Shown here in pieces: positions 31,318 to 53,889 of a DNA stretch of 64,000 bases. Location of the stretch: the NCBI GenBank assembly GCA_002897935.1, contig BDTA01000058.1, positions 5,486 through 69,485 of the forward strand, given 5' to 3'. The notes below the pieces were generated by a model that saw only the letters and a list, made by a program, of their open reading frames with translations, was not told where the DNA came from and did not search any database. Position numbers and translations under genes: made by a program. Position 1 is the first letter of the stretch; each line of letters begins with the position of its first letter. Source of the DNA: a bacterium BMS3Abin08. GTDB lineage: Bacteria > Nitrospirota > Thermodesulfovibrionia > Thermodesulfovibrionales > JdFR-85.

Positions 31318-31479
31318 TCATACCTCCTTAGAGATTTTTAATATATTAAGGATTTTAATATATTCCGGCAAAATGCCTTAACTTTTTATCTGAACAACTA
31401 TCTCTATTAATCTCTTATGTATCCTGACTGAATATACCCGTCGGAAATGTACTCCTTCAGGATATCCTGTGCCTGCATA

Positions 31480-32592: not shown

Positions 32593-32628
32593 TTACTCCT
32601 CCTCATTTAAAATTCAAATATCAAAATG

Positions 32629-32782
32629 CAAAATTGATGCACTCGTAAAAAGTCCTGATTGTCACCCTGAACTTGTTTCAGGGTCTCATAACTTCTTGAT
32701 TTATATAGCTTTCCCGAAGTTAATTCGGGATTCAGAATGACAGAATAGGGTATTTCTGATTTTTTACGAGACTGTCAAAATT
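32629..32782. mobile_element. family-B MITE-like element inside the qmoB-qmoC spacer
   Basis: CAAAATT-gatgcactcgtaaaaag ... ttttttacgagactgt-CAAAATT. Near-identical (in reverse orientation, apart from a roughly 50-bp insertion) to 52482-52684. Confidence 0.7.
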
Positions 32783-32837
32783 ATGGAATTTATTTTAATT
32801 AAAAAATTTCCTCAATTCTAATTTTTGAATTTTTTAT

Positions 32838-35042: not shown

Positions 35043-35045
35043 GAT

Positions 35046-36311
35046 TTACCTCCTCACCAAAGATTGAATTGACTTAAGGGCTGCTGCTGCAGCAGTCTGG
35101 GCAGATGAGTAGACATCAATCGGCTTTATAGCGCAACCAGCAGCATACACTCCGGGCATACCGGTATTTGATAGGACAAAACCATCAGTATCACAAGATA
35201 CGCTTGAGGGGATTTTGCATTCTTGCGTGCTTGGAGCCATACCGGTGGCAAGTACAACAAGGTTAACCTTTTCACAAATCTTATCCCCTATAAGCGTATC
35301 TTCTGCGGTAACTGTAAGATCCTTTGTAGCAGGGTCTTCCTCAATCTTTGCAACCTTACCTTTAATAAAGTTTATATTTTCATCCTGCTGAATCTTTTTA
35401 TAAAACCTTTCATATCTCGTTCCAGGCGAACGAATGTCAATATAAAATACAAATATCTGTGCCTTAGGATATTGCTCCCGCACATAGGTCGCCTCCTTCA
35501 TAGAGGCCAGGCAGCAAATGTAAGAACAGTAAGGAAGATGGTTCTCATCGCGGGAACCGGCGCACTGGACAAAGGCCACCCTTAAGGGCTCCTTTCCATC
35601 GGAGGGTCGAAGGATTTTACCATTAGTAGGGCCATTTTGAGAGGCCAGTCTCTCCATCATCATATTTGTTACGACGTTTTGATATTTCCCGAATCCAAGA
35701 TTATCAATCTTCGCGGCATCATAAGGCTTCCAACCGGTGGCCCAGACAATAGAGCCTGTTTTTAAAGAAATACTCTCAGGCTTCATATTCAGGTCAATAG
35801 CGTTATATGTGCAAGCATCTAAACATTTGGTACATTTCTCTTTAGTGCAATATTTGTCATCAATAACATATCTCAATGGAAAGGCAAACTCATGAGGGAG
35901 ATAGATAGCCTTTGTCTTATTCATACCAAAATTGAAATCATTTGGTCTTTCTACAGGACATGCCTTAACACACTCCCCGCAGGCAGTACACCTTTCATTC
36001 ACAAAGCGAGGATTAAGCTTCACTGTTACATCAAAGTTTCCTTCTGAACCAGAGAGCTTTTCTACTTCTGCTAAGGTGTAAATTTTAACCCTCGGATTGT
36101 TCTTGATTCTTCTATAATTTATCTCAAGTCCGCAATTAGGCGGGCATAATTTCGGGAAATACTTATTAAGCTGTGTTACCCTGCCACCAAGATAGGGATT
36201 CTTCTCAATAAGCGTGACCTCATACCCAACCTCGGCTGCTTCCACCGCGGTGGTTATTCCACTTATTCCTCCACCTACAACCATTATGTTTTTTGTCTTT
36301 TCCAATGCCAT
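35046..36311 (-). CDS. qmoA: QmoA (HdrA-like flavoprotein)
   Basis: Contains VVGGGISGITTAVEAAEVGYEVTLIEK and CTACGECVKACP. Start moved to the ATG at 36311, which has the RBS tggaggaaataac; the track ATG at 36344 has no RBS. Confidence 0.9.
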   Translation of the reverse strand: MALEKTKNIMVVGGGISGITTAVEAAEVGYEVTLIEKNPYLGGRVTQLNKYFPKLCPPNCGLEINYRRIKNNPRVKIYTLAEVEKLSGSEGNFDVTVKLNPRFVNERCTACGECVKACPVERPNDFNFGMNKTKAIYLPHEFAFPLRYVIDDKYCTKEKCTKCLDACTYNAIDLNMKPESISLKTGSIVWATGWKPYDAAKIDNLGFGKYQNVVTNMMMERLASQNGPTNGKILRPSDGKEPLRVAFVQCAGSRDENHLPYCSYICCLASMKEATYVREQYPKAQIFVFYIDIRSPGTRYERFYKKIQQDENINFIKGKVAKIEEDPATKDLTVTAEDTLIGDKICEKVNLVVLATGMAPSTQECKIPSSVSCDTDGFVLSNTGMPGVYAAGCAIKPIDVYSSAQTAAAAALKSIQSLVRR

Positions 36312-36483
36312 GTTATTTCCTCCATAAATATTATTATTCCCCATAAACTTTAAACTTTAAAGTTTATCAATATACGATATATATGTATCAACCTAAACTT
36401 TTAAATAAACTAATAAATTTAATAAATCCAACCTCCTTGACCACAGGGTATTCCCCGACACTTCTCGGAAGTGCGGGGTATTC

Positions 36484-37023
36484 TCAGGGTGCTGGACGAA
36501 AACCACATTCTTCTGATTTGATTGATTCAAATGCCAGGAATACCCTCTTTTCCTTCTCTCTTTTATCATCGGGGAGTTCTTTAAATTCAATCCTCTTGAT
36601 AGCCTCAAGGGCCTCATGCCTTGAAGGTATCTCCACTAAACCGTAACCGATTGCTTTACCAGTTACCGGGTCCAGAATCTCCGCATCCTCTCCATCAGTT
36701 ATAACAGCAACGGGGATTACATAAATATCAAAGATTCTTGCACAGGATAAGACCTCCCTTTCCCATGAAGACAATGAACCACGAGAACATTTTATAATCA
36801 TGAATCTCTTTCCTTCAACACTTATAACAAGGTCAACCTTTGCCCTGTTTATTTTTTCGTCTATAACGATGTCAAATCCCCTGTCAACCTCTATATCATC
36901 TTTTGAATAACCCTTCTCTTCAATTAGAAACCGCTCTATCCCCTGCCTTACCCTTTCATCAGTTGTGTCAACAACCTTCTGCCCTGTTATAAAGTCGATA
37001 AGTTTTTTTTCAACACCATTCAT
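36484..37023 (-). CDS. HsdR_N-like (type I restriction enzyme R-protein N-terminal, PD-(D/E)XK-fold) single-domain protein
   Basis: 179 aa. Contains ERVRQGIERFLIEEKGYSKDDIEV and KVDLVISVEGKRFMIIKC, resembling the stand-alone HSDR_N_2 family. Its ATG is 2 nt after the upstream stop. No helicase, HsdM or HsdS gene is nearby. Confidence 0.55.
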   Translation of the reverse strand: MNGVEKKLIDFITGQKVVDTTDERVRQGIERFLIEEKGYSKDDIEVDRGFDIVIDEKINRAKVDLVISVEGKRFMIIKCSRGSLSSWEREVLSCARIFDIYVIPVAVITDGEDAEILDPVTGKAIGYGLVEIPSRHEALEAIKRIEFKELPDDKREKEKRVFLAFESIKSEECGFRPAP

Positions 37024-37025
37024 AC

Positions 37026-37811
37026 TTATACTGCCTTCTTTTTATACCCTTCCTTCACCTTTAATGTCTCTTCAAGCATCAGGATATATTTCAGGTATTT
37101 GAATCCGAATTTCATCAGCGCTATCTCGTCAGTCTTCATCTTCTCGACCTCTTCTTTATCAATATCAAAGAGATCAAAAAAATTGCTCTCAAAGATAAAT
37201 TTCTTGAACCTATCTATATCATAACTTGCCATGTAAAGCATGCCCTGCTTCTTCGAGTCGAGCTGGGGCTGCCCGGAGACATTTCTCCTTAACTGAATAT
37301 CTTTCCACTCCTTGTTCATCTCATCATAAAGGTCAACCCCCTGGTCAATCCTCCATGTCTCTATCGTCCACTCCTTTTCCTCCTGATAACCGAGGCAATT
37401 GGGGTCTTTTATAAAAAAGTAGAACTCTTCATTTACCGCCCCTTTCTCTGAGCCCATTATCATGAGACCCTGGCCAATGGGATAATATCTACAGTTGGAA
37501 GGACGGTCTTCATAGATACTACAGCCTTCATCTGTAACAAAGGGACATTCCCCTCCATCATCTATCATCTTAAGCGCTGCGTAAGGATGTGAGGACTTTT
37601 CATCAATATGGGTGTATGTGTATCTATCAAGTAACTCTCCTGAAGTAATTCCCAATCTATTTTTCATCCTTACGATGTCATAAGGTGTAAGAAGCACATC
37701 TGCACGACTACAGCATTTACTAAAACAGACGATACCCTTATAACACCCGAATTTGAATTTGGAATTCAGTGTGCGCTTAATAGGTTCAACAAGCCTTCTA
37801 CTCAGAAACAT
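37026..37811 (-). CDS. YkgJ/UPF0153-type cysteine-cluster protein (CxxCxxCC family), paralogue A
   Basis: 261 aa. Contains FKFGCYKGIVCFSKCC and CPFVTDEGCSIYEDRPSNCRYYP. Overlaps paralogue B by 14 nt. Confidence 0.65.
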   Translation of the reverse strand: MFLSRRLVEPIKRTLNSKFKFGCYKGIVCFSKCCSRADVLLTPYDIVRMKNRLGITSGELLDRYTYTHIDEKSSHPYAALKMIDDGGECPFVTDEGCSIYEDRPSNCRYYPIGQGLMIMGSEKGAVNEEFYFFIKDPNCLGYQEEKEWTIETWRIDQGVDLYDEMNKEWKDIQLRRNVSGQPQLDSKKQGMLYMASYDIDRFKKFIFESNFFDLFDIDKEEVEKMKTDEIALMKFGFKYLKYILMLEETLKVKEGYKKKAV

Positions 37812-38616
37812 GGGGTAACCCTTTCCCTCCCGACTGCAGGAGCTTATCCATTGCCTTATCTTTTAGTTTAAAGGTATCCTCGTTAAATAGATTGAATCTC
37901 ACCCATCTATAGCCAAAACTTAAAAGTTCTTCTTCGTCTTTCTTTATCTTTTCTATAACCTCATTGTCCACATCATAGATATCAAAAAAATTAGTTTCAA
38001 AAAGAAATCTCTTAAACTCATTCAGGTCGTAACAAGCCTTATAGAGCAACTTCGCCCTTCCAGAATCAAGCTTATTCCCCTTCTGAAAATAATCATGGAA
38101 GGTGATCTCCTTATATAATTCATTCATTTTATCATAGATATCGATCCCCTGATCTTTCTTCCACTCCGGTGTTGTCCATTGTCTTCCATCTTTTCCTCCA
38201 GAGGCGGATCTGCCTTCGGCAGAAAATCCAAGGCATGAAAGATCCTTCTTTATCAGAAATTCTTCCTCCTTCGAGGAAGCCGGGAATATGGGATACATCC
38301 TGCATGACCATGGCCTGTGCTTATATATGCTGCATCCATCCGGGGAGACAAAAGGGCAGCTTTTATTTTCATCCTCCATCATCTTAAGCACTACCAGAGG
38401 TATTCCCTCATCTCCTAAAAGCGCTACGGTATATCTTTTTAAGAACTCTCCAGAAGGCATCCATGTAGTTTTTCTCATTCTCAGGACATCATAAGGTGTG
38501 AGAAAGATGTTTACATCATTACAGCATGTATTAAAACAGGAAAGCCCTTTATGACATGAGAATTTGAATCTGTCATTTAGAGAGATTTGTTGTTCTTCGG
38601 TATATTCTTCATTCAT
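37798..38616 (-). CDS. YkgJ/UPF0153-type cysteine-cluster protein (CxxCxxCC family), paralogue B
   Basis: Contains FKFSCHKGLSCFNTCC and CPFVSPDGCSIYKHRPWSCRMYP. Start set at MNEEY (ATG 38616, RBS ggaaaggaa), because the track's 56-codon N-terminal extension is encoded by an interspersed repeat. Confidence 0.65.
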   Translation of the reverse strand: MNEEYTEEQQISLNDRFKFSCHKGLSCFNTCCNDVNIFLTPYDVLRMRKTTWMPSGEFLKRYTVALLGDEGIPLVVLKMMEDENKSCPFVSPDGCSIYKHRPWSCRMYPIFPASSKEEEFLIKKDLSCLGFSAEGRSASGGKDGRQWTTPEWKKDQGIDIYDKMNELYKEITFHDYFQKGNKLDSGRAKLLYKACYDLNEFKRFLFETNFFDIYDVDNEVIEKIKKDEEELLSFGYRWVRFNLFNEDTFKLKDKAMDKLLQSGGKGLPHVSE

Positions 38617-38636
38617 AGCGAATTCCTTTCCAATGG

Positions 38637-38720
38637 TCTTCATTCCCGCTTGTCTTGTCATTCCAGCTTGTCTGGAATCGTTCCTTGTTTTAAGAAGGAT
38701 CCCGAACGAGTCGGAATGAC
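38637..38720. repeat. hairpin-module repeat between aprA and the cysteine-cluster genes
   Basis: gtcttcattcccgcttgtcttgtcattccagcttgtctggaatcgttccttgttttaagaaggatcccgaacgagtcggaatgac is a degenerate copy of the family-A core. Confidence 0.65.
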
Positions 38721-38748
38721 ACTTGTTAGGTCTATCTAATAAATCTAT

Positions 38749-38773
38749 GGGGGTGACCTGAAAGGTCACCCCC
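38749..38773 (-). terminator. hairpin 30 nt downstream of aprA (terminator or attenuator)
   Basis: gggggtgacc-tgaaa-ggtcaccccc has a 10-bp GC-rich stem. On the minus strand it is followed by atagatttatt. Confidence 0.5.
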
Positions 38774-38803
38774 TCATACATCATCTCATGACCTACTATC
38801 TTA

Positions 38804-40729
38804 TTAAACGATAGGAATCATCGGCCTTTCAATCGTCTTCCATTCCTTTTTATCCGCATCATACTTGATATTTATGAAGTGTTTGTTGCCTTCATCCAGA
38901 TCCGGGTAATCTAACTTGTGGTAATATCCAGGCCATCTTGACTCTTTTCTCGCGAGTCTTGTCCTTACACATGCCATGCCGACCCACATCCTGTGAACAG
39001 CCTCCCAGGCCCTCATCAGCTCATGATTGTTCTTCTCAAGATTAACACCGAGCTTCTCTACATCCTCTTCTAGTAAACCCAATTTCCAGAGAGCTGTCTC
39101 AAGCATCTTGTCGGTTGTCTCATAATTTGTCTCCCAACTGCCTGCATATTCACCCATTATCTTCTGCAGCCTGAATAGGAAATTATGCGCTGAGATATAG
39201 TTAGGATTTACATCCGGGCTTGTTGTATATGTCTTCTTTTCCTCATAGAGGGCAACAGGTTTAAAAACTATCTCAGTGAGTTTCTTTATCGTATCATCAG
39301 ATACAGTCGGCGTGTAGCCCTTGTGATCATAGGCATACTTCACTGCTGCCTTTGCTGCAATCCTTCCCGATACATGTGAGCCACTTGAGAACTTATGCGC
39401 GCTTGCACCTATGCCGCAACCTGCTGTAAATAGACCATTGACAGTGGTCATAAAGTTATACTGCTCAGGGAATGCATCAGCATATTCTTTTGGCATAAGG
39501 TCAGGAGCACCACAGGCCCATGCACCGCAGGATGCAGCATGTGAACCTATAAAGCAAGGATCTCCTAACTGAAGCTCCGAAGGTTTTTCCAATGGGTCAA
39601 TATTCAGTGAAGCCCAGAGCGTTGCACCCGCAATAGTCATATCAAGGAAGTCCTCCCATGATTCGCTCTCATACTTCTTAAGCGCTTTTTTCTGCTCCTT
39701 TGGGTCTGTTACCTCCTTCTTTATCCTCTCTGTCACCTTCTCTGTATGCATTAACAGTGGTGACTTACCAGCCTTTGTTGCGAGTATCATCTCGTAGTTT
39801 CTCACAGGTGTTGGACAGGGCTTTATCTTTGAATACGGCGCCCACTTATCTGTCTCGGATGTATATGCAAATACATAGGGATCCCCATAAACATCCGTTG
39901 CAGGTGTCTTAAAGAGAAGGAAGAATGTCCCGACAGGTCCGTATGCGTCCTTAAACCTCGGAGGGACGAATGGCACATCCATCTGTGTAAGCTCGCCACC
40001 TGCCTGGAGAATGGTGGCATAAGTCGAGCCTCCAAGGAATGGAGGCATCCATGACCTTCCAAAGCCCTCACCCTGAGACCTTGGCCTGAATACATGGACA
40101 GCGCCGCCCAGACCATCGTAAACCGCATTTGCCTTAAACACATAGAATTTATCTTCCCTTACGCTGAAGCCTACTGCACCACATACCCTATTTGACTCCT
40201 TCTCATCCTTCAGAAGGTGCGTGATATAAACCCTCTCAATGAGCTGGCCCTTATCACCGAGGGTAGCAATGGCATTCTTTGCCGCCTCTGCCACGATAAT
40301 CTTGTAGCTCTCGCCTGATATCGCCACCTGCCATGCGCCTGATTTGGCATAATTCCCATTCTCGTCCTTCCATATAGGAAGCCCCCATTTATCGAAAGTC
40401 TTGACAGAGGAATCCACATGCCTTGCGATATCATAGATGATGTCCTGTCTTGTAAGACCCATCTGGTCATTTGTCACATACTTTACAAAATCCTCAGGCT
40501 GATGGGAATCATGTGTTACCTTTCCATCTAACCCCATATAGGTATTAATAGCAGAAAGCCCCATTGCAACAGGACCACTCCTGTCAACAGCAGCCTTGTC
40601 TACCCAGGTTACCTTTAAACCCAGTGGCTTTGTCCAGTATGAAGCCTCAACTACAGCGCCGCAGCCACCCATACCTCCACCGAGTATCAATACATCGGTT
40701 TCAATAACCTCTGTTGTAAATTCTTTCAT
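38804..40729 (-). CDS. aprA: adenylylsulfate (APS) reductase alpha subunit
   Basis: 641 aa. FAD motif DVLILGGGMGGCGA. Adjacent to aprB and sat. Confidence 0.9.
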   Translation of the reverse strand: MKEFTTEVIETDVLILGGGMGGCGAVVEASYWTKPLGLKVTWVDKAAVDRSGPVAMGLSAINTYMGLDGKVTHDSHQPEDFVKYVTNDQMGLTRQDIIYDIARHVDSSVKTFDKWGLPIWKDENGNYAKSGAWQVAISGESYKIIVAEAAKNAIATLGDKGQLIERVYITHLLKDEKESNRVCGAVGFSVREDKFYVFKANAVYDGLGGAVHVFRPRSQGEGFGRSWMPPFLGGSTYATILQAGGELTQMDVPFVPPRFKDAYGPVGTFFLLFKTPATDVYGDPYVFAYTSETDKWAPYSKIKPCPTPVRNYEMILATKAGKSPLLMHTEKVTERIKKEVTDPKEQKKALKKYESESWEDFLDMTIAGATLWASLNIDPLEKPSELQLGDPCFIGSHAASCGAWACGAPDLMPKEYADAFPEQYNFMTTVNGLFTAGCGIGASAHKFSSGSHVSGRIAAKAAVKYAYDHKGYTPTVSDDTIKKLTEIVFKPVALYEEKKTYTTSPDVNPNYISAHNFLFRLQKIMGEYAGSWETNYETTDKMLETALWKLGLLEEDVEKLGVNLEKNNHELMRAWEAVHRMWVGMACVRTRLARKESRWPGYYHKLDYPDLDEGNKHFINIKYDADKKEWKTIERPMIPIV

Positions 40730-40756
40730 TTCTTCTCTCCTTTCTTATTTCCTTTC

Positions 40757-41200
40757 TTATTTTTTTGTCGGGAGTTCTTTTACTCCCAGCATATCCGGCT
40801 CTGAAAACAGCAATTGATTGTTTAAATCTTCTACCTTTGCCTCAGGAAATCCCTCAAGCGCCTTTATAGAACCCTCTGGAGTAGTCCTCGTTGCATACTT
40901 AAACCTCTTGATCCTTCCATCCCTGTAAGTGATGGTCCACATGATGTCCTCTGTCCCTCTCAAGGGAGTTGATGCAGCGCCGAGGGGCATAAAGTCCTGG
41001 TATCCCCTCACATCCATAGCCTGCTGTGGACATATCTTTACACAACAGTAGCACTCCCAGCAATAAGTAGGCTCCTGATTGTAAGCCTTCATCCTCTCCT
41101 TGTCCAGCATCATCAGGTCATTGGGGCATATGTACATGCAAGCAGTTTTATCCTGCCCCTTGCAGCCGTCACATTTTTCTGTCATTACAAAACTTGGCAT
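40757..41200 (-). CDS. aprB: adenylylsulfate (APS) reductase beta subunit
   Basis: 147 aa. Begins MPSFVMTEKCDGCKG...CMYICPNDLM and continues CWECYCCVKICPQQA, giving two 4Fe-4S clusters. Confidence 0.9.
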   Translation of the reverse strand: MPSFVMTEKCDGCKGQDKTACMYICPNDLMMLDKERMKAYNQEPTYCWECYCCVKICPQQAMDVRGYQDFMPLGAASTPLRGTEDIMWTITYRDGRIKRFKYATRTTPEGSIKALEGFPEAKVEDLNNQLLFSEPDMLGVKELPTKK

Positions 41201-41349
41201 TTTAATACCTCCTTACTTTAGTTGAGTTAATAATTGACCTTAACGCTTAAAGCCTGAATTTAACGATTCTAAACTTTCACCCCCTCTCCTTAAATTATAA
41301 GGGATTGGTTGTTAGGGTCTGAGGATTGGTATTTACCAACCCCTGATCT

Positions 41350-42567
41350 TTACTTCATTCCCTCTGCATATTTATGCATCTTGATCTCGACCTTTTCCGT
41401 CAACCCCTCGTAGTAAGCGCGAAGTATCTCCAGCACCTCGGTCCGGCTGAACTTATCCGAGACAGCCTCACCCTCGGAGAGCATCTTACGCAGCTTGGTC
41501 CCGCTCAGGATAAGCCTGTCCTCCTTGCTATGGGGGCATGTCTTCATCGATGCCATCTGGTCACACTTGTTACACCAGAAGGTCCAGTCAATCTTGAGGG
41601 GCTGTGTCTCAAGGGCATCCTTGGGGATCTCGTCAAAGATACGGTGGGCATCAAAAGGACCATAGTAGTCACCAACACCTGCATGGTCACGACCGACAAT
41701 AAGATGACTGCATCCAAAATTCTGTCTGAATAGGGCATGCAGAAGCGCCTCTCTCGGACCTGCGTATCTCATGTCAAGGGGATAACCACCAACCATGATG
41801 GTGTCCTTCACGAAATAGTTTTCAATAAGGGTTTCGATGGCCTTGCCCCTTACATCTGCCGGTATGTCCCCGGGCTTGAGTTTTCCAAGAAGCATGTGGA
41901 TAAAGACACCGTCACATATCTCGATTGCGATCTTGGCGAGGTATTCATGGGAGCGGTGCATGGGGTTACGGGTCTGAAATGCTGCAACTGTGGTCCAGCC
42001 CTTCTCCTCAAAGACCCTCCTTGTCTCATCGGGCCTCATATAGACCCCCTTGAACTCTTTGGGGAAGATACCCTCACTCAGGACCTTTACCGGACCGGCA
42101 AGATTTACATCTGCCTGGGCCATAACCTTTGCAACACCCGGATGTTCGGTATCTGTGGTCTTGAATACCTGTCGACACTCATGCTCCTTGTCGATTGTAT
42201 ATTTTTCGGTAATCTTCATCGTTCCCATGATCTCACCACTGTCTTCATCTACAAGGGTTACCTCTTCGCCTTCCTTGATGCTGTTTGCCTGCCCCTTTGT
42301 GGTGGAGAGCGTTATAGGAATGGGCCAGAATGTCCCATCAGCCATCTTGTACTCATCACAAACACCCTTCCAGTCATCATGTCCCATAAAACCTTCAAGG
42401 GGAGTAAACCCGCCGATACCCATCATTATAAGGTCTCCGGTCTCCCTCGAGGTCATCCTTATGTGTGTCAGGTCCTTTGCCTTTCCCATCTCCTCCTTCA
42501 GTTCATCGCCTTCAAGAAGGAGCGGGTTCAGTTTTTTCTCTTTTCCATGAGGATTAACTAACGCCAT
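41350..42567 (-). CDS. sat: sulfate adenylyltransferase (ATP sulfurylase)
   Basis: 405 aa. Contains [13 protein letters not shown] and [12 protein letters not shown]. Confidence 0.9.
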
Positions 42568-42642
42568 CTCAAGCCTCCTTAATTTATTAATGTTGAATGC
42601 TTAATTAATAATTATCGAGCGTTTCACTCTTAACATTCAGCG

Positions 42643-43293
42643 CTACTTTATGCTGTCGAGAATAGCACAGACATTTGCAAAAATCTCCTCTATATTACCC
42701 ACTCCATTGACGCTCTTAAGAATACCCTTGTTTTTATAGTACTCTATCAGAGGTGCTGTCTGGTTCTCATAAACCTCGAGTCTTTTCCTGATCGTCTCCT
42801 CCTTGTCGTCATCCCTGTGATAGAGTTCCCCACCGCATTTATCGCAGATCCCCTCTTTTGCCGGAGGACTGAAATAGATGTTGTACATCTGACCGCACTG
42901 CCTGCAGGTACGCCTGCCGGTGAGCCTCTTCATAAGGACATCAGGATCCACATCCACACTAAGCGCTATCTGAAGAGGAACGCCCATCTCACCCAAAACA
43001 CGGTCAAGTGTCTCAGCCTGAGCTGTATTTCTGGGAAAACCATCAAGTATAAACCCCTTCTTGCAGTCATCCTGCTGCAGCCTCTCCTTAACAAGCCCGA
43101 TTACAACTGAATCGGGAACAAGTTCTCCCTTATTCATATAGGACTTTGCCTCTGTGCCAAGGGGGGTACCGTCTGCTACGGCCTTTCTGAGGATGTCTCC
43201 GGTAGATATCTGTGGAATGCCATACTTGTCGATAAGTTTCTTAGCCTGGGTCCCCTTGCCTGCTCCTGGTGCACCAAGAAGAACGATTCTCAT
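42643..43293 (-). CDS. adk: adenylate kinase (Zn-finger lid type)
   Basis: 216 aa. P-loop GAPGAGKGTQ. Lid cysteines CRQCGQMY...CDKCGG. Confidence 0.9.
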   Translation of the reverse strand: MRIVLLGAPGAGKGTQAKKLIDKYGIPQISTGDILRKAVADGTPLGTEAKSYMNKGELVPDSVVIGLVKERLQQDDCKKGFILDGFPRNTAQAETLDRVLGEMGVPLQIALSVDVDPDVLMKRLTGRRTCRQCGQMYNIYFSPPAKEGICDKCGGELYHRDDDKEETIRKRLEVYENQTAPLIEYYKNKGILKSVNGVGNIEEIFANVCAILDSIK

Positions 43294-45514: not shown

Positions 45515-45877
45515 CTACGTATCATCCTCATCATCATCGGGCACAATAAAGGGATTCTTCTTTTTCCGGTTTCTGAAGATAAACTTGGGATAATAATAGA
45601 AAGAAAGGAATCCGTCAAGTTTTATTATCTCGTTGACATCGGGGTTACCTCTCAGAACACCTATTATCCTCCGGATATACAGGAAGAATATAAATGAAAA
45701 GACCTCCATTGCAAGTGCAAAAAGAAATATCACCCTCTCGCTGTCACGGTCAGGATAGAACCTTATCAGTAACAGAAAAAAGATAACCACGGAAAAGAGA
45801 CTAACATAGCTAAGGAACCCGGCCTTTATTATGAGTTCCTTTACGGCCTTCTCTTTTGCCTTTTTATTCAAACTCAT
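45515..45877 (-). CDS. hypothetical small membrane protein
   Basis: 120 aa with two hydrophobic helices and an acidic C-terminal tail (DDDEDDT). No recognisable family. Confidence 0.4.
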   Translation of the reverse strand: MSLNKKAKEKAVKELIIKAGFLSYVSLFSVVIFFLLLIRFYPDRDSERVIFLFALAMEVFSFIFFLYIRRIIGVLRGNPDVNEIIKLDGFLSFYYYPKFIFRNRKKKNPFIVPDDDEDDT

Positions 45878-46146: not shown

Positions 46147-46182
46147 GACACCCTGACGGAATAATAAAGCCGTCAGGGTGTC
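46147..46182 (-). terminator. rho-independent terminator (13-bp stem)
   Basis: gacaccctgacgg-aataataaag-ccgtcagggtgtc. On the minus strand it is followed by ctattttcc. It lies 10 nt after the stop of the 58-aa ORF. Confidence 0.65.
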
Positions 46183-46191
46183 CTGGCCCGG

Positions 46192-46368
46192 CTACATCTC
46201 CTTACCTGCCTCCTCAACATTCTCATAGCATCTCTTCTTCTCTTCCTCGGTCAGGCTGGAAGGATCTCTCAGATCTGACAGCCTGCATATGAACTCCTTC
46301 CCTGATTTGTCCTTTACAACTATAAACTGGGTTGCTGTTGATTCTGTTACCTCGGGTTTCTTCTCCAT
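46192..46368 (-). CDS. 58-aa hypothetical protein (below the ORF-track length cutoff)
   Basis: Strong RBS ggagggtgat before the ATG at 46368. Sequence: MEKKPEVTESTATQFIVVKDKSGKEFICRLSDLRDPSSLTEEEKKRCYENVEEAGKEM. A strong terminator follows. Confidence 0.5.
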   Translation of the reverse strand: MEKKPEVTESTATQFIVVKDKSGKEFICRLSDLRDPSSLTEEEKKRCYENVEEAGKEM

Positions 46369-46443
46369 ATCACCCTCCTTACATATAGCATAAATTTGAA
46401 TAACAAACCCTGATATTTTACCTTACACAAACAAAAATGTTTC

Positions 46444-46469
46444 AGGCAAGGCCCGTACGGGCCTTGCCT
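46444..46469 (-). terminator. rho-independent terminator after the UPF0324-like transporter gene
   Basis: aggcaaggccc-gtac-gggccttgcct has an 11-bp stem. On the minus strand it is followed by gaaacatttttgtttg. Confidence 0.6.
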
Positions 46470-46488
46470 TTATAATACAATATTCGAT

Positions 46489-48090
46489 CTATTGGACAAA
46501 CCCTGCTATATTCGGCAACTGCATCCCGTGGTGGAAGAGGTACGCAATAATCATGGCAATCGGGATTATGAAGAAGAAAAGGGAAATAAAATAGACCCAG
46601 ACCATCTTGCCGAATTTTGCTTCTGCGAGCTTCCTGAAGTCCGTAATGATACCGAGACTCATGAATGTCAGCATGAAGAAGAGCTTCCTCATAGGTCCTT
46701 CAACCGGTACTGCACCAGCCTTTACCGTCTTAAGGTAAGGCATGGCTTCAGGTGCGCCACCCTGCCCCGGGCCGAAGTACAGGGCAAGCAGGAAGAACCA
46801 GCAGAAGAAGTACCCAAGGACGAATTTAGGGAATCTGTGCCAGACCTCCGAGGCAGGCACTTTCTCCCCCGGCCGTCGTTCTATCTTGTAAACCCAGACC
46901 AACGCCAGCACAAAGGCCCAGATCCCGATGAACATGTCAATCCAAACCTTGGTCATAACAGCACTTGCAGTGATAATACCGGCTGGCCATTTGATTGCGC
47001 CGTTTGATTCGACCTCGATCTTATTACGCATAAATTCATCCAGCAACTCTCCGGCGGCAGCGTCGGCACCATCCGTCTTGACCGACATACCCATGGCAGC
47101 TCCGGCGACAATCGGATCAGCCGTTCCGGGCCATACATGGGTGAAGAACGCGGGAAGGATAACAAGCTCTATAACCGCCCATACCACAACAAGAGCGGAT
47201 ACCATGATGGAGACAACCGGTTTAGCACGCACTGCACCACCTGTGGCCACAGCAGCAGAGACACCGCAGATGGAGATTCCGGAGCCAAGAACAGCGGCCG
47301 TCTTACGTGGAAGTTTGAACAACTTTCTTGATATCAGGTATACAATCGGCCAAAATATCATATAGGCCACTATGGTTGCCGCAGCGCCTGCAACAAAGAG
47401 GTCAAACGTCAGCCCTGCAGCCTCTTTACCCAGCTTGTGAGAAAAACCGGCAAGTTTGATAGGCAGGTAACCAAGCTTGACACCCAGTGTAACGATCGCC
47501 GTCTTGATATACCATTCCGGTTTTGCCGCCTCGCTCAGGTAATTCGCAAAGGGTTTGAAGAAGTTGCCGATTATCAGGCCGACAATCAACGCAAGGATAA
47601 ATGAGCCACCTCCACCGAGGGAGAGGGCAAATTTCAGCCCGTACTTATTCATGTTGATCTTGTTGGCTGCGATGAAGGCATGATGACCAACAAACCACGT
47701 GGCGATCGTCATAAAATAAATGATTGTCCAGCCGACAAAAAACCTCTTCAGATTCCACTTCATGAATGCCGCGCCAATGCAGGTAGCAATGGTAAATGCA
47801 ACATATGTCCAAATTATACTCCACCATCCAAGACCCGAATAAAAACCCTTGGCTGTAATACTGGTTTTCTTACCGATTGCGTAAAAGGCATGGCCAATAG
47901 CACCTTTGCCTCCTTCAGGAACGTTAGCAACCCATTTTGTAGGATAAGTAAGAAAACCAACAACATCAATCCCCGCTAAATTTAGAAGCCCCAGGAAGAA
48001 GAAGCCGACACCGAGCCAGACGGCCCACCAGTCCTCCTGAGTCAGCATTCCTGTGTACCATTTCCTGTTTGTTAGGTCAGCCATTAACAC
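46489..48090 (-). CDS. enlarged UPF0324/YeiH-like ('putative sulfate exporter family') membrane transporter
   Basis: 533 aa with at least 12 hydrophobic helices. GSGISICGVSAAVATGGAV resembles the G-x-SICG-x-SA motif of the UPF0324 family. It is about 180 aa longer than typical YeiH. Confidence 0.5.
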   Translation of the reverse strand: MLMADLTNRKWYTGMLTQEDWWAVWLGVGFFFLGLLNLAGIDVVGFLTYPTKWVANVPEGGKGAIGHAFYAIGKKTSITAKGFYSGLGWWSIIWTYVAFTIATCIGAAFMKWNLKRFFVGWTIIYFMTIATWFVGHHAFIAANKINMNKYGLKFALSLGGGGSFILALIVGLIIGNFFKPFANYLSEAAKPEWYIKTAIVTLGVKLGYLPIKLAGFSHKLGKEAAGLTFDLFVAGAAATIVAYMIFWPIVYLISRKLFKLPRKTAAVLGSGISICGVSAAVATGGAVRAKPVVSIMVSALVVVWAVIELVILPAFFTHVWPGTADPIVAGAAMGMSVKTDGADAAAGELLDEFMRNKIEVESNGAIKWPAGIITASAVMTKVWIDMFIGIWAFVLALVWVYKIERRPGEKVPASEVWHRFPKFVLGYFFCWFFLLALYFGPGQGGAPEAMPYLKTVKAGAVPVEGPMRKLFFMLTFMSLGIITDFRKLAEAKFGKMVWVYFISLFFFIIPIAMIIAYLFHHGMQLPNIAGFVQ

Positions 48091-48149
48091 CTCCCTTGTT
48101 AAGGTTAAACGTTAAATTTTAAAGAGTTATGTCGGTTCCGGCATCCTCA

Positions 48150-48395
48150 TCACCCCTCCACCACCAGTACTCTGTTAAAATAATGCTGGGCGTACTGGCG
48201 GATCCACTGGGGGATGGTAGAGTTATCAAAAAGCATCCGCACCTCGGTCTTCTGACCATTTTTAACGAGACCTTCCCTCCTCACGAATTCCCTGACCTCG
48301 GCATCTATACCATCCAGCGTTGGAGATGCAAGCCTCAGGTCCCCCTTCTCCACTACCCAGTTCCTGCCGTCATGTCTTATCACCATATCTATCAT
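48150..48395 (-). CDS. 81-aa soluble hypothetical protein (DUF1902/HicB-like N-terminal fold suspected)
   Basis: MVIRHDGRNWVVEKGDLRLASPTLDGIDAEVREFV resembles the beta-strand-rich HicB/DUF1902 N-terminus. No HicA-like partner is present. Confidence 0.35.
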   Translation of the reverse strand: MIDMVIRHDGRNWVVEKGDLRLASPTLDGIDAEVREFVRREGLVKNGQKTEVRMLFDNSTIPQWIRQYAQHYFNRVLVVEG

Positions 48396-48401
48396 AACGG
48401 T

Positions 48402-48602
48402 TCAATGTAAGACTGAGGTTGGAACAAGAAACAGACCGATTATCAGGGCAACGACAGCAATAACCAAGGACCACGCAACAAGTTTGGTCTCGATAGGATC
48501 CCAGGGCTCAGCACCTGCAAGGACATCATCTACTTCAAGTGCAGCTCCTGTTAATGACCCTGTTCCTGAAACCTCTTTTTTTTCCTCATTTGCATCAGCC
48601 AT
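48402..48602 (-). CDS. 66-aa single-pass membrane protein, acidic N-terminus
   Basis: MADANEEKKEVSGTGS...WDPIETKLVAWSLVIAVVALIIGLFLV. First gene downstream of the sigma-54 promoter. The RBS is aaggaggtaagaatg. Confidence 0.5.
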   Translation of the reverse strand: MADANEEKKEVSGTGSLTGAALEVDDVLAGAEPWDPIETKLVAWSLVIAVVALIIGLFLVPTSVLH

Positions 48603-48686
48603 TCTTACCTCCTTTCAGGATTGTTTTAAAAAAAACAAACTTCAAACATCACCCCCTTTCTTTAATTTTAGTCCGGGATAAATAAG

Positions 48687-48702
48687 AGCAATAGACATGC
48701 CA
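48687..48702 (-). promoter_or_regulatory. sigma-54 (-24/-12) promoter
   Basis: The reverse complement reads TGGCATGTCTATTGCT, matching TGGCAC-N5-TTGCW with correct GG/GC spacing. It lies about 85 nt upstream of the ATG at 48602. Confidence 0.7.
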
Positions 48703-48749
48703 GGAAAGGGGTATTGAAAGGATTATTAAATTTAATCACGAAGTGGCTA

Positions 48750-48770
48750 ATCTAAAAGGAAATTTTAGAT
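48750..48770. promoter_or_regulatory. palindrome ATCTAAAA-N5-TTTTAGAT upstream of the sigma-54 promoter (candidate activator or IHF site)
   Basis: 8-bp perfect arms read directly. A second dyad, TGCA-N10-TGCA, is at 48809-48826. Confidence 0.3.
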
Positions 48771-48848
48771 CAACAGGATTTTGCTATACGATCGGTTGGC
48801 CAGTAATGTGCAAAAACAGTATTGCAGTCTGTTTAAAGCCTCTTGCAC

Positions 48849-50240
48849 TCACCGGAAGTCTTTCGAATCTATCCCGTACTTTCTCATCAGGTGCTGAATT
48901 GACTGCCGTTCAAGTTCAGCCATCCGTGCGGCATGAGTCACATTGCCTGAGGTCTTCTTGAGAAGATGCCTGATATAGTTCACGGTAAAATGCTCAAGGA
49001 CCCTGTTTCGAGCCGTCTTATAATCCATCGACATGGTTTCACAGGAGACACCACCGGTGAAATGCCCAAACTGAGTTGTATCCTCAAAGGCATCCCTGTC
49101 TATAATGGACCCTTTTGAAAAGATAACGGCCCTCTTTATTGTATTCTGAAGCTCCCGGACATTTCCCCTCCACTCTCTGACCTTAAGATAATCCAGGGCG
49201 TCCCGGGAAAAACCCGTTATACTCTTGCCGTACTCAAGGGCGTACTCTATAAGGAAATGCTCTGCAAGGAGAGGAATATCATCAACCCGATCATTTAAAG
49301 AGGGCATCCTTACGGTAATCACATTCAACCTGTAATAGAGATCGTCTCTGAACTGGCCATCTTCAATCTTCCTCTCAATCTCCTGGTTCGTTGAAGCGAT
49401 GACCCTTACATTCACCTTCACACTCGCTGTATCCCCAAGGGGTTTGAACTCCTTTTCCTGAAGAACCCTGAGGAGTTTACTCTGAACGGAGAGAGGGATA
49501 TCTCCGATCTCATCGAGGAAGAGCGTTCCGCCATCGGCCGCCTCAAAGAGGCCCTTTCTGTCGCTGACGGCAGAGGTAAAGGCCCCCTTCCTGTAGCCGA
49601 AGAGTTCACTTTCGAGGATGGACTCGGGGATGGCAGGGCAGTTCACAGCGATAAAGGGTCCCTTCGATCGTCTGCTGAAACGGTGGGTCGTTCGGGCAGC
49701 CAGTTCCTTGCCGGTCCCGGTCTCTCCTGTAATCAGGACGGTCTCACCCGTCTCTGCAATGGTCCTGATCCTGTCAAGAAGGTTGGCCATCACATCACTC
49801 TCACCAATCAACTCCCTCTTCAGGGAGGCATACTTCACGCGTTCTTCGAGAAAACGCTTCTCTTTAAGAACCCTCCTGTACTCCAGCGCCCTCTTTAACG
49901 TATGGATTAACCTCTCGTTATCTACCGGTTTGGTCAGGAAATCATAGGCACCCTTCTTTAGTGCCTCAACAGCAAGATCCACCGTCCCGTATCCTGTCAG
50001 TATGATCACGATGAGGTCGCTGTCAATCTTCCTGAGATCCTCGAGCAGGGCGATCCCGTCTTTCCCCGGCATCTTCACGTCGGTGATCACCACATCAACC
50101 CCATCACCGGATATAGCGCCAACGGCATCCCTCCCCCTCGTCACCCCCACCACCTGTACATTCAGTTCAGTTGAAAGAAGTCTTTCAAGGAATACAAGCA
50201 TATCCTTTTTATCATCCACAACAAGGACTTTTTCAGACAT
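48849..50240 (-). CDS. NtrC-family sigma-54-dependent response regulator
   Basis: 463 aa. Receiver (VLVVDDKKD...ITDVKMPGKDG), AAA+ domain (GETGTGKE, GAFTSA, FLDEIGDIP) and HTH (GNVTHAARMAELERQSIQHLMRKYG). Confidence 0.9.
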   Translation of the reverse strand: MSEKVLVVDDKKDMLVFLERLLSTELNVQVVGVTRGRDAVGAISGDGVDVVITDVKMPGKDGIALLEDLRKIDSDLIVIILTGYGTVDLAVEALKKGAYDFLTKPVDNERLIHTLKRALEYRRVLKEKRFLEERVKYASLKRELIGESDVMANLLDRIRTIAETGETVLITGETGTGKELAARTTHRFSRRSKGPFIAVNCPAIPESILESELFGYRKGAFTSAVSDRKGLFEAADGGTLFLDEIGDIPLSVQSKLLRVLQEKEFKPLGDTASVKVNVRVIASTNQEIERKIEDGQFRDDLYYRLNVITVRMPSLNDRVDDIPLLAEHFLIEYALEYGKSITGFSRDALDYLKVREWRGNVRELQNTIKRAVIFSKGSIIDRDAFEDTTQFGHFTGGVSCETMSMDYKTARNRVLEHFTVNYIRHLLKKTSGNVTHAARMAELERQSIQHLMRKYGIDSKDFR

Positions 50241-52197
50241 GACCGCTCCTCACGCCCCTTTCCATAGGCAGAGAGACCGTAAAGGTGCTGCCTCTGCCGA
50301 CCTCGGATTCAACAATAATATCGCCATGGTGTTCCTTTACTATACCATAGCTTACTGAAAGACCGAGCCCCGTCCCTTCCCCGGGCTCCTTCGTTGTAAA
50401 GAAGGGTTCAAATATCCTTCCCCTGATCTCCTCCGGGATACCCACGCCGTTGTCCCGCACAGAAATGAAAATCCGGGACGGAGACTTATTGCAGTTGCTT
50501 TCTATCATTATCTCCCCACCGGGAGAGACTGCCTGTATGGCGTTCACTATAATATTCATAAAGACCTGTCTCATCTTTTCCCGGTCAAGCATCACCTCAG
50601 GCACAGAGGATGAGTACTTTCTTGCTATATCAACCCCCTTCGCCTCAACTTGATAGGAAAGCATCTCTACAACCCCGTCAACCAGCCTGTGAATATCGAG
50701 CAATTCAGGACGTGTTTCAGTGCGGCGTGAAAACTTCAGCAGGTCCTCAACTATCCGTTTACATGTCTCCGCGTTCCGGCTGATCACCCCTATATCCGAT
50801 CTTACGCCGTCTTTTTCTCTTAGTTCTTTCATCAGTATCCCGGAGTACCCGAGGATAATCCCCAAGGGGTTGTTAAGCTCATGAGCAAGCCCGGCAGCAA
50901 GCTGGCCTATGGATGCTAAACGGTCTGCCTCCTTTAGCCGGTCCTGTACCCTCTTCCACTCACTGATATCCTTTACGATCGCCTCGAACCCACATATCTC
51001 TCCATCATCACTCCTCCGGAAATTTGCTGTAATAAGTACGTCTATCAACCCGCCGTCAATACCCCTCAGTTGTGTCTCGTAGTCTTTAACAAAGCCTACA
51101 TTCTTCATCCTGTCGAGGAAGTCGGTATAATCATCCTTATTGATAAAGATGTCATAGAACGTCTTATGCCGGATCAGGTTTGACTTGTCTTCACATCCAA
51201 AGAGTTCGAGCCCTGCAGGATTAACGTCCTGGATAAATCCTTCACAGTCGGCAATCAGTATCGTGTCCTTCGAGCCTTCAAAAATACGCCTGTATTTCAA
51301 CTCGGAACCCTTCATTTTATCCTGTGAGTTCTTCAGATAAGCCATCATTCGGTTGAATGCCTCGGCCAGTTCACCGATCTCGTCTTTACTCGCGACCTCA
51401 ACCCTCGTATCGAGGTCTTTCTCGCCCTTGACGACAGACTTGAAAAACCTGCTTACATCCTTTATCGGTTTTACAGCAACGATATTTATGTAGTAGTTCA
51501 CCGAAAGAAAGAGGAATACAACTCCCACAATCCCGGTCAGAAAAATAGAGAAGACCAGTCCCTTGATCTGCAGAAAGGCCTCGTCTATGGGGATTGCAAT
51601 GGACTCGACTCCGATGATTTCTCCGGCGGTTCTGTAAAACCCCCCTTTTTTGCCATACAACCTGACAAGGGATACCGGCGCATTAGCAGGATCCCCGTGG
51701 CATAAAAGACATTCCTTCTCTATAACTATCGGGCGGGCCTGTATAAAGTATCTCTTTCCATTCTGCTTTACCACTTCCCGTATTTTCTCAATTTTTTTAT
51801 TCCTGAAGAGCCCTATGTATCGCAAATCGAGCTTATTCGGGCTGTTCCGGGGGTTCATCGGGTTGATTGCCACCCTCCGGTATTCAAAATCGGGGAAGGA
51901 CTTCTTGAACTCCGACATAATTCCCTTGTTCATGAACGAAACCGACATGGCTTCGGGGATAAAAGAATCTTCCGGCAGGATATGAAACAGCTTGGGACGC
52001 ACCTGTTTTCTAATATATTGAACCGTTGCCTGTATATGAGAAAAGAGGATATCTGTCTTTTCATAAGTCTGGTTGATGCTTGTATCCTTTAGATTGAAAT
52101 AAATGAGGACGTTGAAGAGGCACCAGAAAAAGATAACGATAAAACCGATTCCAAGAAAGAACTTGGTGGTGAGGCTCATGTCTCTGAGGGGTTTCAT
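50233..52197 (-). CDS. sensor histidine kinase with extracytoplasmic c-type haem-binding (CxxCH, DUF3365/Tll0287-like) sensor domain, HAMP, PAS, HisKA, HATPase_c
   Basis: 654 aa. TM1 [22 protein letters not shown], then about 190 aa containing [13 protein letters not shown], then TM2 [19 protein letters not shown]-box [11 protein letters not shown]-box GTGLGLS. Confidence 0.8.
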
Positions 52198-53886: not shown

Positions 53887-53889
53887 AGA

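Follow-up and report, generated by a model that had tools for sequence, protein, structure and literature searches.

A three-gene PF03601 transport operon under predicted haem-kinase and sigma-54 control, encoded near sulfate-activation genes in a Nitrospirota bacterium

A stretch of 64,000 nucleotides (nt) of contig BDTA01000058.1 from the Nitrospirota bacterium BMS3Abin08, referred to here as the window, was analysed for a group of genes on its minus strand. All coordinates are those of the window, and homologous loci in other genomes are numbered L001 and onwards. In the order of transcription, the group consists of a sensor histidine kinase (50233..52197), an NtrC-type response regulator (48849..50240) and three genes, referred to as the trio, which encode a membrane protein of 66 amino acids (aa) (48402..48602), an 81-aa soluble DUF5395 protein (48150..48395) and a 533-aa transporter (46489..48090). 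The original prediction for this region had listed the open reading frames (ORFs) of 66, 81, 533 and 58 aa together with several motifs and hairpins, and all of them were found in place. Its central proposal was that a haem kinase and an NtrC-type regulator control the transporter set through sigma-54. This proposal is backed by the comparative evidence, which supports the region as a regulated transport module where the haem-c kinase and the activator act on a sigma-54 promoter in front of the trio operon.

The kinase has a length of 654 aa and is predicted to contain a first transmembrane (TM) helix, a periplasmic sCache_heme (Tll0287-like) domain, a second TM helix, and HAMP, PAS, HisKA and HATPase_c domains. 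The TM helices were predicted at aa 14-32 and 213-231, flanking a loop of ~180 aa; this would place the domain outside the cytoplasm, as attachment of a c-type haem requires. A single CxxCH (ECLLCHG) had been reported in an extracytoplasmic loop between two TM helices, and this was borne out. The motif CLLCH at aa 163-167 (51697..51711, minus strand) is the predicted haem-c attachment site; it is the sole CxxCH, and the periplasmic loop contains no other Cys. The region aa 40-203 matched PF11845 in Pfam (E 3.9e-32, 112.1 bits compared with a gathering score of 24.1) and aligned to the crystal structure of Tll0287 (PDB 5B82) with the CxxCH motifs in register (phmmer E 9e-5). By both comparisons, the claimed haem sensor is a bona fide Tll0287/sCache_heme domain.

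DUF3365/Tll0287 has been redefined under the name sCache_heme (bioRxiv 10.64898/2026.02.01.703092). This Cache domain contains a c-type haem, its CxxCH is 99% conserved, and the family is enriched in Nitrospirota and Desulfobacterota. Stand-alone members, with their Cys/His ligation, resemble redox proteins; among signalling-fused members, the single one that was tested has no axial Cys, binds NO tightly with a koff of ~6e-4 per s and does not bind O2 stably (bioRxiv 10.64898/2026.02.01.703092). The window kinase belongs to the signalling class. With the known signalling proteins of this family (the NO sensor of P. azotoformans and Geobacter GSU0582/GSU0935) it shares PF11845, the invariant CxxCH, the extracytoplasmic position, the fusion to HAMP and the absence of the axial Cys of stand-alone Tll0287. 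In contrast to these proteins, for which no target genes are reported, the window kinase has an identifiable output and a regulated operon. Trio-linked kinases were recovered with their sensor region in 26 homologous loci, and all 26 kept the CxxCH and had no other periplasmic Cys. The motifs AMS(x)SF/Y and YRRV were common to all 26 sensors, which form an orthologous group of their own, distinct from the described signalling proteins. The structure of Geobacter GSU0935 reportedly has Met as the sixth haem ligand. Therefore, the Met of EAMSVSF in the window kinase is a candidate haem ligand, and AMS(x)SF/Y may have this role throughout the group. The trio-linked kinases have two cytoplasmic architectures of ~650 and ~830 aa; the periplasmic sensors are nevertheless orthologous. 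Together with their regulators they occur in three arrangements: upstream of the trio and on its strand, as is the case in the window; upstream but divergent; or downstream. In L040, which comes from a close relative of the window organism, a second, shorter Tll0287-type kinase of 493 aa (L040 4174-5655) lies immediately upstream of the main trio-linked kinase, which suggests tandem haem sensors. The signal of the window kinase is possibly NO, sulfide, sulfite or a pure redox change.

The regulator has 463 aa with a REC domain (Response_reg, E 1e-26), an AAA+ domain with the GAFTSA loop (Sigma54_activat, E 3.5e-70), AAA_lid_14 and a weak HTH_8 match (E 0.023, under the gathering score). The predicted overlap of 8 nt between the kinase and regulator genes was confirmed at 50233-50240. 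None of the NCBIfam equivalog cut-offs was reached (AtoC, 411.6 compared with 714); therefore, the protein is not AtoC, GlrR, NtrC, ZraR or another named regulator.

The putative sigma-54 promoter TGGCATGTCTATTGCT (TGGCAT-N5-TTGCT) is located at 48687..48702 on the minus strand, 147 nt past the stop codon of the regulator, with the GG at 48700-48701 and the GC at 48688-48689. It agrees with TGGCAC-N5-TTGCW in 10 of 11 positions (1 mismatch), and a transcript start is expected near 48677. Within the window alone, such a match was not significant, with 3 sites compared with 1.6 expected, and the case for the promoter therefore rests on its conservation. The 450 nt upstream of the 66-aa gene were scanned in 71 loci for GG-N10-GC elements scoring ≥9/11. 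An element was found in 33 of the 71 loci, compared with 2 of 71 in a control region of the same size inside the transporter gene. Loci with a haem kinase and/or activator within 10 kb had the element in 27 of 30 cases, whereas it was present in only 6 of 41 loci without them (Fisher p 1.6e-10). The near-perfect -24/-12 element that the original prediction had placed downstream of the regulator is thus conserved in homologous loci and tracks the regulators.

An AT-rich palindrome upstream of the promoter had also been pointed out. The palindrome, ATCTAAAA-N5-TTTTAGAT, exists at 48750..48770, but it is absent from every homologous upstream region and was rejected as the activator site. A probable activator-binding dyad, CTGCAATACTGTTTTTGCAC, was found at 48808..48827 on the minus strand. 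It begins 125 nt upstream of the -24 element, has its centre ~115 nt upstream, and agrees with the consensus GTGCAA-N8-TTGCAC in 11 of 12 positions, which was equalled in none of 200 shuffles (0/200). In the whole window, it is the only match to this consensus with ≤1 mismatch. The consensus was significant in 10 of the 15 loci that have the arrangement of the window and also in L036 and L038, at distances of 80-168 nt upstream of the -24 element. Loci of the divergent class have TGCTAAC-N4-GTTAGCA instead and loci of the downstream class TGTAAAC-N4-GTTTACA, both at about -80 and both significant compared with shuffles. The upstream dyads thus co-vary with the class of regulator and behave as activator-binding sites should; the dyad at 48808-48827 is likely the activator site. 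Two other sequences in the window match the -24/-12 element with 1 mismatch (7478-7493 and 63545-63560, both minus strand), and neither has a GTGCAA-N8-TTGCAC dyad nearby.

In the proposed mechanism, the kinase would display a covalent haem-c Cache domain in the periplasm, and ligand binding or a redox change at the haem would be the signal. This signal would pass through HAMP and PAS to the kinase core and lead to phosphorylation of the regulator, which would bind the dyad and then use ATP and its GAFTSA loop to open the promoter at 48687-48702. A close known parallel in layout is the C4-dicarboxylate system DctB/DctD-DctA. There too, a periplasmic sensor of the Cache superfamily sits between a pair of TM helices, the activator is of the REC-AAA+-HTH type, a dyad lies upstream of a -24/-12 promoter, and the target is a secondary transporter. 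However, DctB has a carboxylate pocket, whereas the Cache domain of the window kinase is predicted to carry a c-type haem, and the target here is a three-protein PF03601 module. With a haem in place of the carboxylate pocket, the signal would be the ligand or redox state of the haem and not necessarily the transported substrate.

The original prediction had the promoter drive a single-pass membrane protein of 66 aa, a soluble protein of 81 aa and a membrane protein of 533 aa, and the operon that this implies was borne out by conserved gene order and by the promoter. A scan with the transporter alignment, using one genome per species, found relatives in 338 species, and the 80 best loci were analysed. 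The DUF5395 gene was located directly upstream of the transporter in 77 of these 80 loci, and in ~74 it was itself immediately preceded by a homologue of the 66-aa gene, with constant order and strand; nearly all exceptions were contigs that end at the transporter. The trio as a whole keeps its order and strand in ~75 of the 80 genomes. In the converse metagenome scan, which started from DUF5395, a transporter start was found within 400 nt in 41 of the 49 loci with enough downstream DNA and a 66-aa gene upstream in 46 of 55. Co-occurrence of the small proteins with the large transporter, which the original prediction had proposed to check, is thus near-invariable. The gap between the 66-aa gene and DUF5395 is typically 2-12 nt, and the DUF5395 and transporter codons overlap in some loci. 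Hosts belong to at least eight phyla and include Nitrospirota, Desulfobacterota, Bacillota (Desulfotomaculum, Desulforadius), Bacteroidota, Planctomycetota, Myxococcota, Gammaproteobacteria and Nitrospinota. Because the trio is also kept in loci without kinase and regulator, the small partners are not accessories of the signalling system. A search for metabolic neighbours across the 80 loci returned the kinase, the regulator and small downstream membrane proteins as the only recurrent ones.

The 66-aa protein, the product of the first trio gene on the minus strand, has an acidic N-terminal tail, a conserved GAEPWxPIETK motif and one TM helix at aa 42-60; it matched no family in Pfam or NCBIfam. 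The DUF5395 protein, encoded by the second gene on the same strand, matched PF17373 over its full length (E 2.8e-27, 95.5 bits compared with a gathering score of 25). Its most conserved part is a C-terminal helix-strand motif, with the near-invariant sequence FDNSTIPQWIRQYAQHYFNR. The AF2 model has a pLDDT of 92 and a beta-beta-beta-alpha-beta-alpha-beta topology. A Foldseek search of the PDB with this model gave no match with E < 0.1 and no PII protein, and a search of solved-structure sequences with the family profile gave nothing relevant. Given a confident model without PII matches in the PDB, the idea of a PII-like or SbtB-type regulator was rejected. The N-terminal half shows a weak similarity to a HicB-like antitoxin fold (3k6q, 42 columns, probability 0.66). 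In an exhaustive profile search of 1.84 billion representative proteins, the family comprised only 128 clusters, nearly all of stand-alone proteins of 77-125 aa, and DUF5395 was never seen apart from the context of the trio. No Rosetta-stone fusion of DUF5395 with its partners was found in this set, and the longer matches look like miscalled ORFs. A full-text literature search found no paper that mentions DUF5395, and searches for PF17373, UPF0324 and COG2855 found none on this transporter subfamily.

The synteny suggests that the three trio proteins probably form one complex. Alternatively, the 66-aa protein and DUF5395 could be independent factors that just share a transcript with a transporter able to function alone, for example an assembly chaperone, a kinase regulator or an antitoxin-like pair. 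The lack of fusion proteins, the HicB-like resemblance (3k6q, probability 0.66) and the fact that canonical YeiH works without such partners are in line with this. However, co-occurrence is near-absolute in both directions, the order is fixed and the junctions are tight or overlapping in at least eight phyla. The partners persist where kinase and regulator are missing, and the conservation of DUF5395 peaks in the C-terminal helix-strand motif, with no DNA- or toxin-binding feature. We therefore regard independent roles of the small proteins as very unlikely. Carriers of the CPA/AT fold or comparable ones that are encoded beside small accessory proteins are known from SbtA-SbtB, TRAP DctQ, TctB and YeeE-YeeD, and as in SbtA-SbtB a soluble cytoplasmic partner may gate or regulate the carrier. 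The trio differs from these systems in that DUF5395 is neither PII-like nor TusA-like and that a second, single-pass membrane partner is present; the interaction is here proposed from synteny.

The transporter, the third gene of the trio (minus strand), was annotated with 533 aa; the protein probably has 531 aa with an ATG at 48084. It had been described as an oversized UPF0324/YeiH-like transporter. The family assignment stood, with 65.3 bits to PF03601 over aa 163-492 (gathering score 24.5), but the description as an oversized YeiH did not: the YeiH subfamily model TIGR00698 gave only 31.1 bits compared with a cut-off of 232.6, and the protein therefore represents a separate PF03601 subfamily. 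Identity to E. coli YeiH was 22% over ~200 aa (BLASTP E 2e-7), with an hhalign probability of 81%. The two re-entrant motifs of the protein are GSGISICGVSAAVATGG and GMSVKTDGADAAAGE. The G-x-SICG-x-SA-type motif named in the original prediction is present as GSGISICGVSAAVA. This first motif, GxGxSICGxxA, aligns with GAGSSICGAAAVLA of YeiH, is common to both proteins (GSGISICGVSAA) and is invariant in 91 homologues. The second motif differs, with VKTDGADAAAGE in the transporter and TVHEVAQVVAAG in YeiH; instead of the YeiH motif TVHE(V/A)..., the family has the invariant SVKTDGADAAAGE. The predicted ligand site of YeiH is the Glu-Val-Ala within this second motif (bioRxiv 10.64898/2026.04.22.720190). 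Members of the transporter family are 60-90% identical across phyla, with ~150 invariant positions among 91 sequences. In the AlphaFold model (pLDDT 86, pTM 0.86), two helix-break-helix hairpins are located at the re-entrant motifs, and an N-terminal extension is present that YeiH lacks. Foldseek returned only weak matches in the PDB, which were the elevator-type CPA/AT carriers CitS, NHA2, NapA/NhaP, CNT, SbtA and ASBT; a profile search of solved-structure sequences found no relative with a solved structure. Based on the model, we propose that the protein is an elevator-type secondary carrier of the PF03601 (YeiH/PSE) superfamily. The matched folds, weak as they are, belong to cation-coupled elevator carriers and were counted toward a carrier function.

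The nearest described relatives are YeiH, SuyZ and TauZ (PF03601, UPF0324, TCDB 2.A.98 Putative Sulfate Exporter). They share with the window transporter the Pfam family, the re-entrant motif G-x-G-(S/I)-SICG-x-(S/A)A, the CPA/AT elevator-type fold and a genetic association with sulfur-oxyanion metabolism. Compared with YeiH, the window transporter is ~180 aa longer, due to an N-terminal extension of one TM helix, an extracytoplasmic beta region and two more TM helices, and due to a longer C-terminal half. YeiH has no small partners, whereas the window transporter family is near-invariably encoded with two. Furthermore, YeiH is under the control of a divergent sulfite-binding LysR regulator (YeiE), whereas the trio would be controlled by a two-component system and sigma-54. 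The regulatory parts of the module are of known kinds. What they would regulate, an obligate trio around a divergent PF03601 carrier that recurs in apr/dsr clusters, is undescribed.

The original prediction had also referred to a nearby sulfate-activation cluster. This cluster is real and larger than described. On the same strand as the trio and 3-4 kb downstream, at 29266..43293, Pfam identified adenylate kinase (adk, 42643-43293), sat (41350-42567), aprB (40757-41200), aprA (38804-40729), qmoA (35046-36344), qmoB (32838-35042), qmoC (31480-32592) and a membrane H+-pyrophosphatase (H+-PPase, 29266-31317). The window therefore holds a complete set for sulfate activation and APS reduction. Two CxxCxxCC proteins (PF03692, 37026-38784, minus strand) follow directly after aprA. 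A CxxCxxCC protein after aprA is also present in the unrelated L147 (8576-9418), immediately before the trio, and it looks like a conserved apr-associated gene. An HSDR_N_2-domain protein (36484-37023, minus strand) is inserted between the apr and qmo genes of the window.

The arrangement of the trio with sat-apr-qmo was also found in L017 and L040. In L147, qmoCBA is followed by aprB-aprA-Ogr-CxxCxxCC-trio-radical SAM, genes that share one strand and are separated by no more than ~100 nt; the locus continues with sirohaem-synthesis genes and dsrC-N-D-B-A-P-O. In L085-L087, the trio is divergent from dsrA-B-D-(dsrL-like)-N-C-M-K, and in Desulfobacula (L046/L047) it lies ~2 kb downstream of dsrAB-N. 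A metagenome-assembled genome (MAG) of the Nitrospinota (L079, 2500-19500) contains the trio within an oxidative-type cluster, dsrN-OsmC-dsrE-dsrF-dsrO-dsrP-trio-dsrC-dsrA-dsrB-dsrL-dsrM. Nitrospinota are known mainly as nitrite oxidisers, and such a cluster would be unusual for them. In total, the trio lies inside or flanks apr or dsr genes in five independent lineages, twice plausibly in the same transcription unit, and the dsr clusters concerned are of both the reductive and the oxidative kind. With the trio embedded in apr or dsr clusters of other lineages, the link to sulfur is stronger than the distance of 3 kb given in the original prediction. When transporters were grouped at 80% identity, 5 of 15 groups were adjacent to a sulfur cluster compared with 0.3-0.9 expected by chance, a rough statistic as two dsr-linked loci were hand-picked and the sample was not uniform.

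A specificity of the trio for sulfate reducers was considered and rejected, as the trio is also present in Nitrosococcus and other aerobes. With a Firmicutes member as seed, close homologues of ~70% identity were found in Nitrosococcus halophilus, N. oceani, N. watsonii and many gammaproteobacterial MAGs. These three Nitrosococcus species are aerobic marine ammonia oxidisers with an intact trio; that of N. halophilus Nc4 (CP001798.1, L148 9438-11464) adjoins a cytoplasmic PAS-PAS histidine kinase that is not a haem sensor. Judged from organism and sample names, the cultured carriers and many of the samples seem to come from marine, saline or hydrothermal settings. The trio could thus be a horizontally mobile carrier linked to such habitats that has nothing to do with sulfur and moves another ion or solute, for example bicarbonate or an organic anion, or performs Na+/H+ exchange; its proximity to sulfur genes would then be a coincidence or due to shared genomic islands. 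This would agree with unrelated neighbours in Nitrosococcus, many non-sulfur Gammaproteobacteria, and MAGs of Bacteroidota and Planctomycetota, with lateral spread as suggested by 60-80% identity across phyla, and with the best structural matches, CitS, the Na+/H+ antiporters NHA2, NapA and NhaP, and CNT, SbtA and ASBT. SbtA with its small soluble partner SbtB is an architectural parallel, and in the window a Na+/Ca2+-exchanger gene and the H+-PPase are nearby. However, the five independent lineages with the trio inside or flanking apr or dsr operons contrast with a rough chance expectation of <1, Pfam places the transporter in the one CPA/AT family that is genetically tied to sulfite and sulfate, and DUF5395 is not PII-like. 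An unrelated function is therefore considered quite unlikely.

Sulfur oxyanions are the substrates suggested by the distant relatives of the transporter. In Salmonella, YeiH is the main determinant of sulfite resistance (PMC12880088). In Hyphomicrobium, yeiH is induced 526-fold by thiosulfate and the protein was proposed to be a sulfite exporter (PMC11582611), as was BP2808 of Bordetella (bioRxiv 10.64898/2026.04.22.720190). These genetic ties of YeiH and SuyZ to sulfite and sulfate handling were counted toward a sulfur function of the trio (PMC12880088, PMC11582611, bioRxiv 10.64898/2026.04.22.720190). They also raise the alternative of a YeiH-like safety valve: with sulfite reductase blocked, the trio would export cytoplasmic sulfite that stems from APS reductase or reverse Dsr. 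The haem kinase would in this case sense sulfite, or NO or nitrite as classic inhibitors of dissimilatory sulfite reductase, and induce the exporter. Such a role would be in line with canonical PF03601 proteins, which give sulfite resistance or respond to sulfite-generating conditions (PMC12880088, PMC11582611, bioRxiv 10.64898/2026.04.22.720190), and with NO binding by the tested signalling sCache_heme protein, which has no axial Cys, just as the window sensor has no Cys outside the CxxCH (bioRxiv 10.64898/2026.02.01.703092). The positions of the trio inside the oxidative dsr cluster of L079, where sulfite is a cytoplasmic product, and beside aprBA in L147 also fit an exporter. On the other hand, known exporter regulators such as YeiE sense cytoplasmic sulfite, whereas a periplasmic sensor as found here is more typical of uptake, as in DctB/DctD-DctA. 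The transporter has just 22% identity to YeiH and a different second hairpin motif, the haem kinase is absent from many loci, and NO binding is known for one distant homologue only. A sulfite exporter would also be a wasteful constitutive partner of sat-apr, since the exported intermediate has cost two ATP equivalents. Taken together, a sulfite valve appears unlikely.

We instead favour, with a probability of about 0.55, a PF03601-type carrier of three proteins that transports a sulfur oxyanion and is controlled by the haem kinase and sigma-54. The gene neighbourhood and the distant family membership suggest that the trio complex moves a sulfur oxyanion through the cytoplasmic membrane as a symporter with H+ or Na+. 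For the sulfate reducer of the window, the most likely process would be import of sulfate to feed the adjacent adk-sat-aprBA-qmoABC-PPase pathway. The proposed inward direction in sulfate reducers is a further difference from YeiH; in sulfur oxidisers, transport by this carrier would be outward. Through the haem sensor, expression would be coupled to the redox or ligand state of the periplasm, for example to a periplasm that becomes over-reduced as the electron acceptor runs short. All contexts, i.e. respiratory import, assimilatory import and export in oxidisers, would be compatible with a reversible sulfate:cation symporter, and also with a sulfite carrier. Sulfate import specifically is a possible function of the trio that we advance only tentatively. 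Still more doubtful is the wider proposal that many sulfate reducers and sulfur oxidisers of marine and hydrothermal habitats have in the trio their missing cation-coupled carrier for sulfate (sulfur oxyanions), under the control, in the lineage of the window, of a haem-c sensor that reads acceptor limitation, NO or sulfide.

Several observations weigh against the favoured carrier function and its sulfur substrate. About 90% of the individual trio loci have no sulfur genes within 10 kb, and the trio of N. halophilus and four further contexts are unrelated to sulfur. Since the trio occurs in Nitrosococcus and many Gammaproteobacteria without sulfur neighbours, dissimilatory sulfur metabolism is not its only setting, and it may have a generic marine function in the transport of an ion or solute. 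With 22% identity to YeiH and an altered second motif, the substrate is not transferable by homology. The sensor cannot directly sense sulfate, because sulfate is no haem ligand. The adjacency statistic is rough for the reasons given above, and the physical association of the trio is argued from synteny, with no fusions found.

Downstream of the transporter, two further small genes extend the module. The 58-aa ORF (46192..46368, minus strand) encodes a soluble protein with conserved C28 and C47 that matched nothing in Pfam or NCBIfam. It had been taken for a separate unit; however, a homologue lies 60-200 nt after the transporter in 17 of the 80 loci, and the gene is rather a syntenic accessory of the module. 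A two-TM protein of 120 aa (45515..45877, minus strand) with a conserved C-terminal YYYPKF...KRNPFIVPDDED has homologues at the same position in 7 loci. In 29 other loci, this position is occupied by an unrelated two-TM protein of ~120 aa with similar topology, and no homology was found between the two alternative proteins. Since both the 58-aa and the 120-aa proteins are syntenic accessories, the module reaches beyond the region covered by the original prediction. Terminators had been assigned to 46444-46469 and 46147-46182. Both sites form strong hairpins on the minus strand, but only the second has an adjoining U-run. The hairpin at 46444..46469, directly after the transporter, has a folding energy of -23.7 kcal/mol and a U-run that begins 5 nt past the stem; it is possibly an attenuator or partial terminator. 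The hairpin at 46147..46182 (-27.1 kcal/mol, followed by UAUUUU) resembles an intrinsic terminator. An Rfam scan of the operon found no RNA element.

Other neighbours of the module were recorded as well. The genes pheS, rplT and rpmI (52822-54562, minus strand) are located just upstream of the kinase, and thrS-infC-rpmI-rplT-pheS also precedes the module in the related Nitrospirota loci L020 and L040; the chromosomal position of the module is therefore stable in this clade. Between the module and sat, a membrane protein of the PF01699 Na+/Ca2+-exchanger family is encoded on the opposite strand (44323-45492, plus strand). Homologues with 56-65% identity adjoin the module in L001, L002, L016, L017 and L094, and exchanger and module possibly share one ion-handling neighbourhood. 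Located between the module and adk-sat is a gene for a YwiC-like membrane protein (PF14256, 43509-44213, minus strand). Near the trio, ~5 loci encode a YeeE/YedE-like Sulf_transp protein (PF04143; e.g. L006 2483-3922), and ~5 loci encode a periplasmic rhodanese of two domains next to a universal stress protein (e.g. L018 1629-3195). Both are weak additional hints of a sulfur context, with too few loci to build on.

Dissimilatory sulfate reduction begins with the uptake of sulfate, a step that influences the rate of the process. To our knowledge, this uptake has so far been tied to no specific protein, and we know of no firmer assignment for the export of cytoplasmic sulfate or sulfite by sulfur oxidisers. 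A survey of sulfate transporters in sulfate reducers considered the five families SulT, SulP, CysP, DASS and CysZ, with no mention of PF03601 (PMC5840216). Most of its candidates are encoded >100 genes from sat, apr or dsr, and some sulfate reducers have no SulP, DASS or CysP, so that only poorly defined CysZ/TSUP candidates remain (PMC5840216). Desulfohalobium retbaense and Thermodesulfobium narugense are without the known families, and Thermodesulfovibrio yellowstonii has two CysP candidates but neither SulP nor DASS. High-affinity uptake of sulfate appears only under sulfate limitation (PMC5840216), which implies regulation.

The compact, conserved trio inside apr/dsr clusters is a concrete and testable candidate for a sulfate or sulfite carrier in both sulfur-respiring and sulfur-oxidising bacteria. 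It is present in cultured isolates, namely Desulfacinum hydrothermale, Desulfobulbus rhabdoformis, Thermodesulfatator and Nitrosococcus. The module also provides a first identifiable regulon for a member of the newly defined haem-containing Cache sensor family, and it assigns a context to DUF5395 and to the unnamed family of the 66-aa membrane protein. If the proposed function is correct, the trio would contain the first PF03601 carrier that needs small partner subunits and would represent a kind of three-subunit transporter not described before. Dissimilatory sulfate reduction would then gain a dedicated, regulated uptake step that is encoded beside sat-apr-qmo or dsr.

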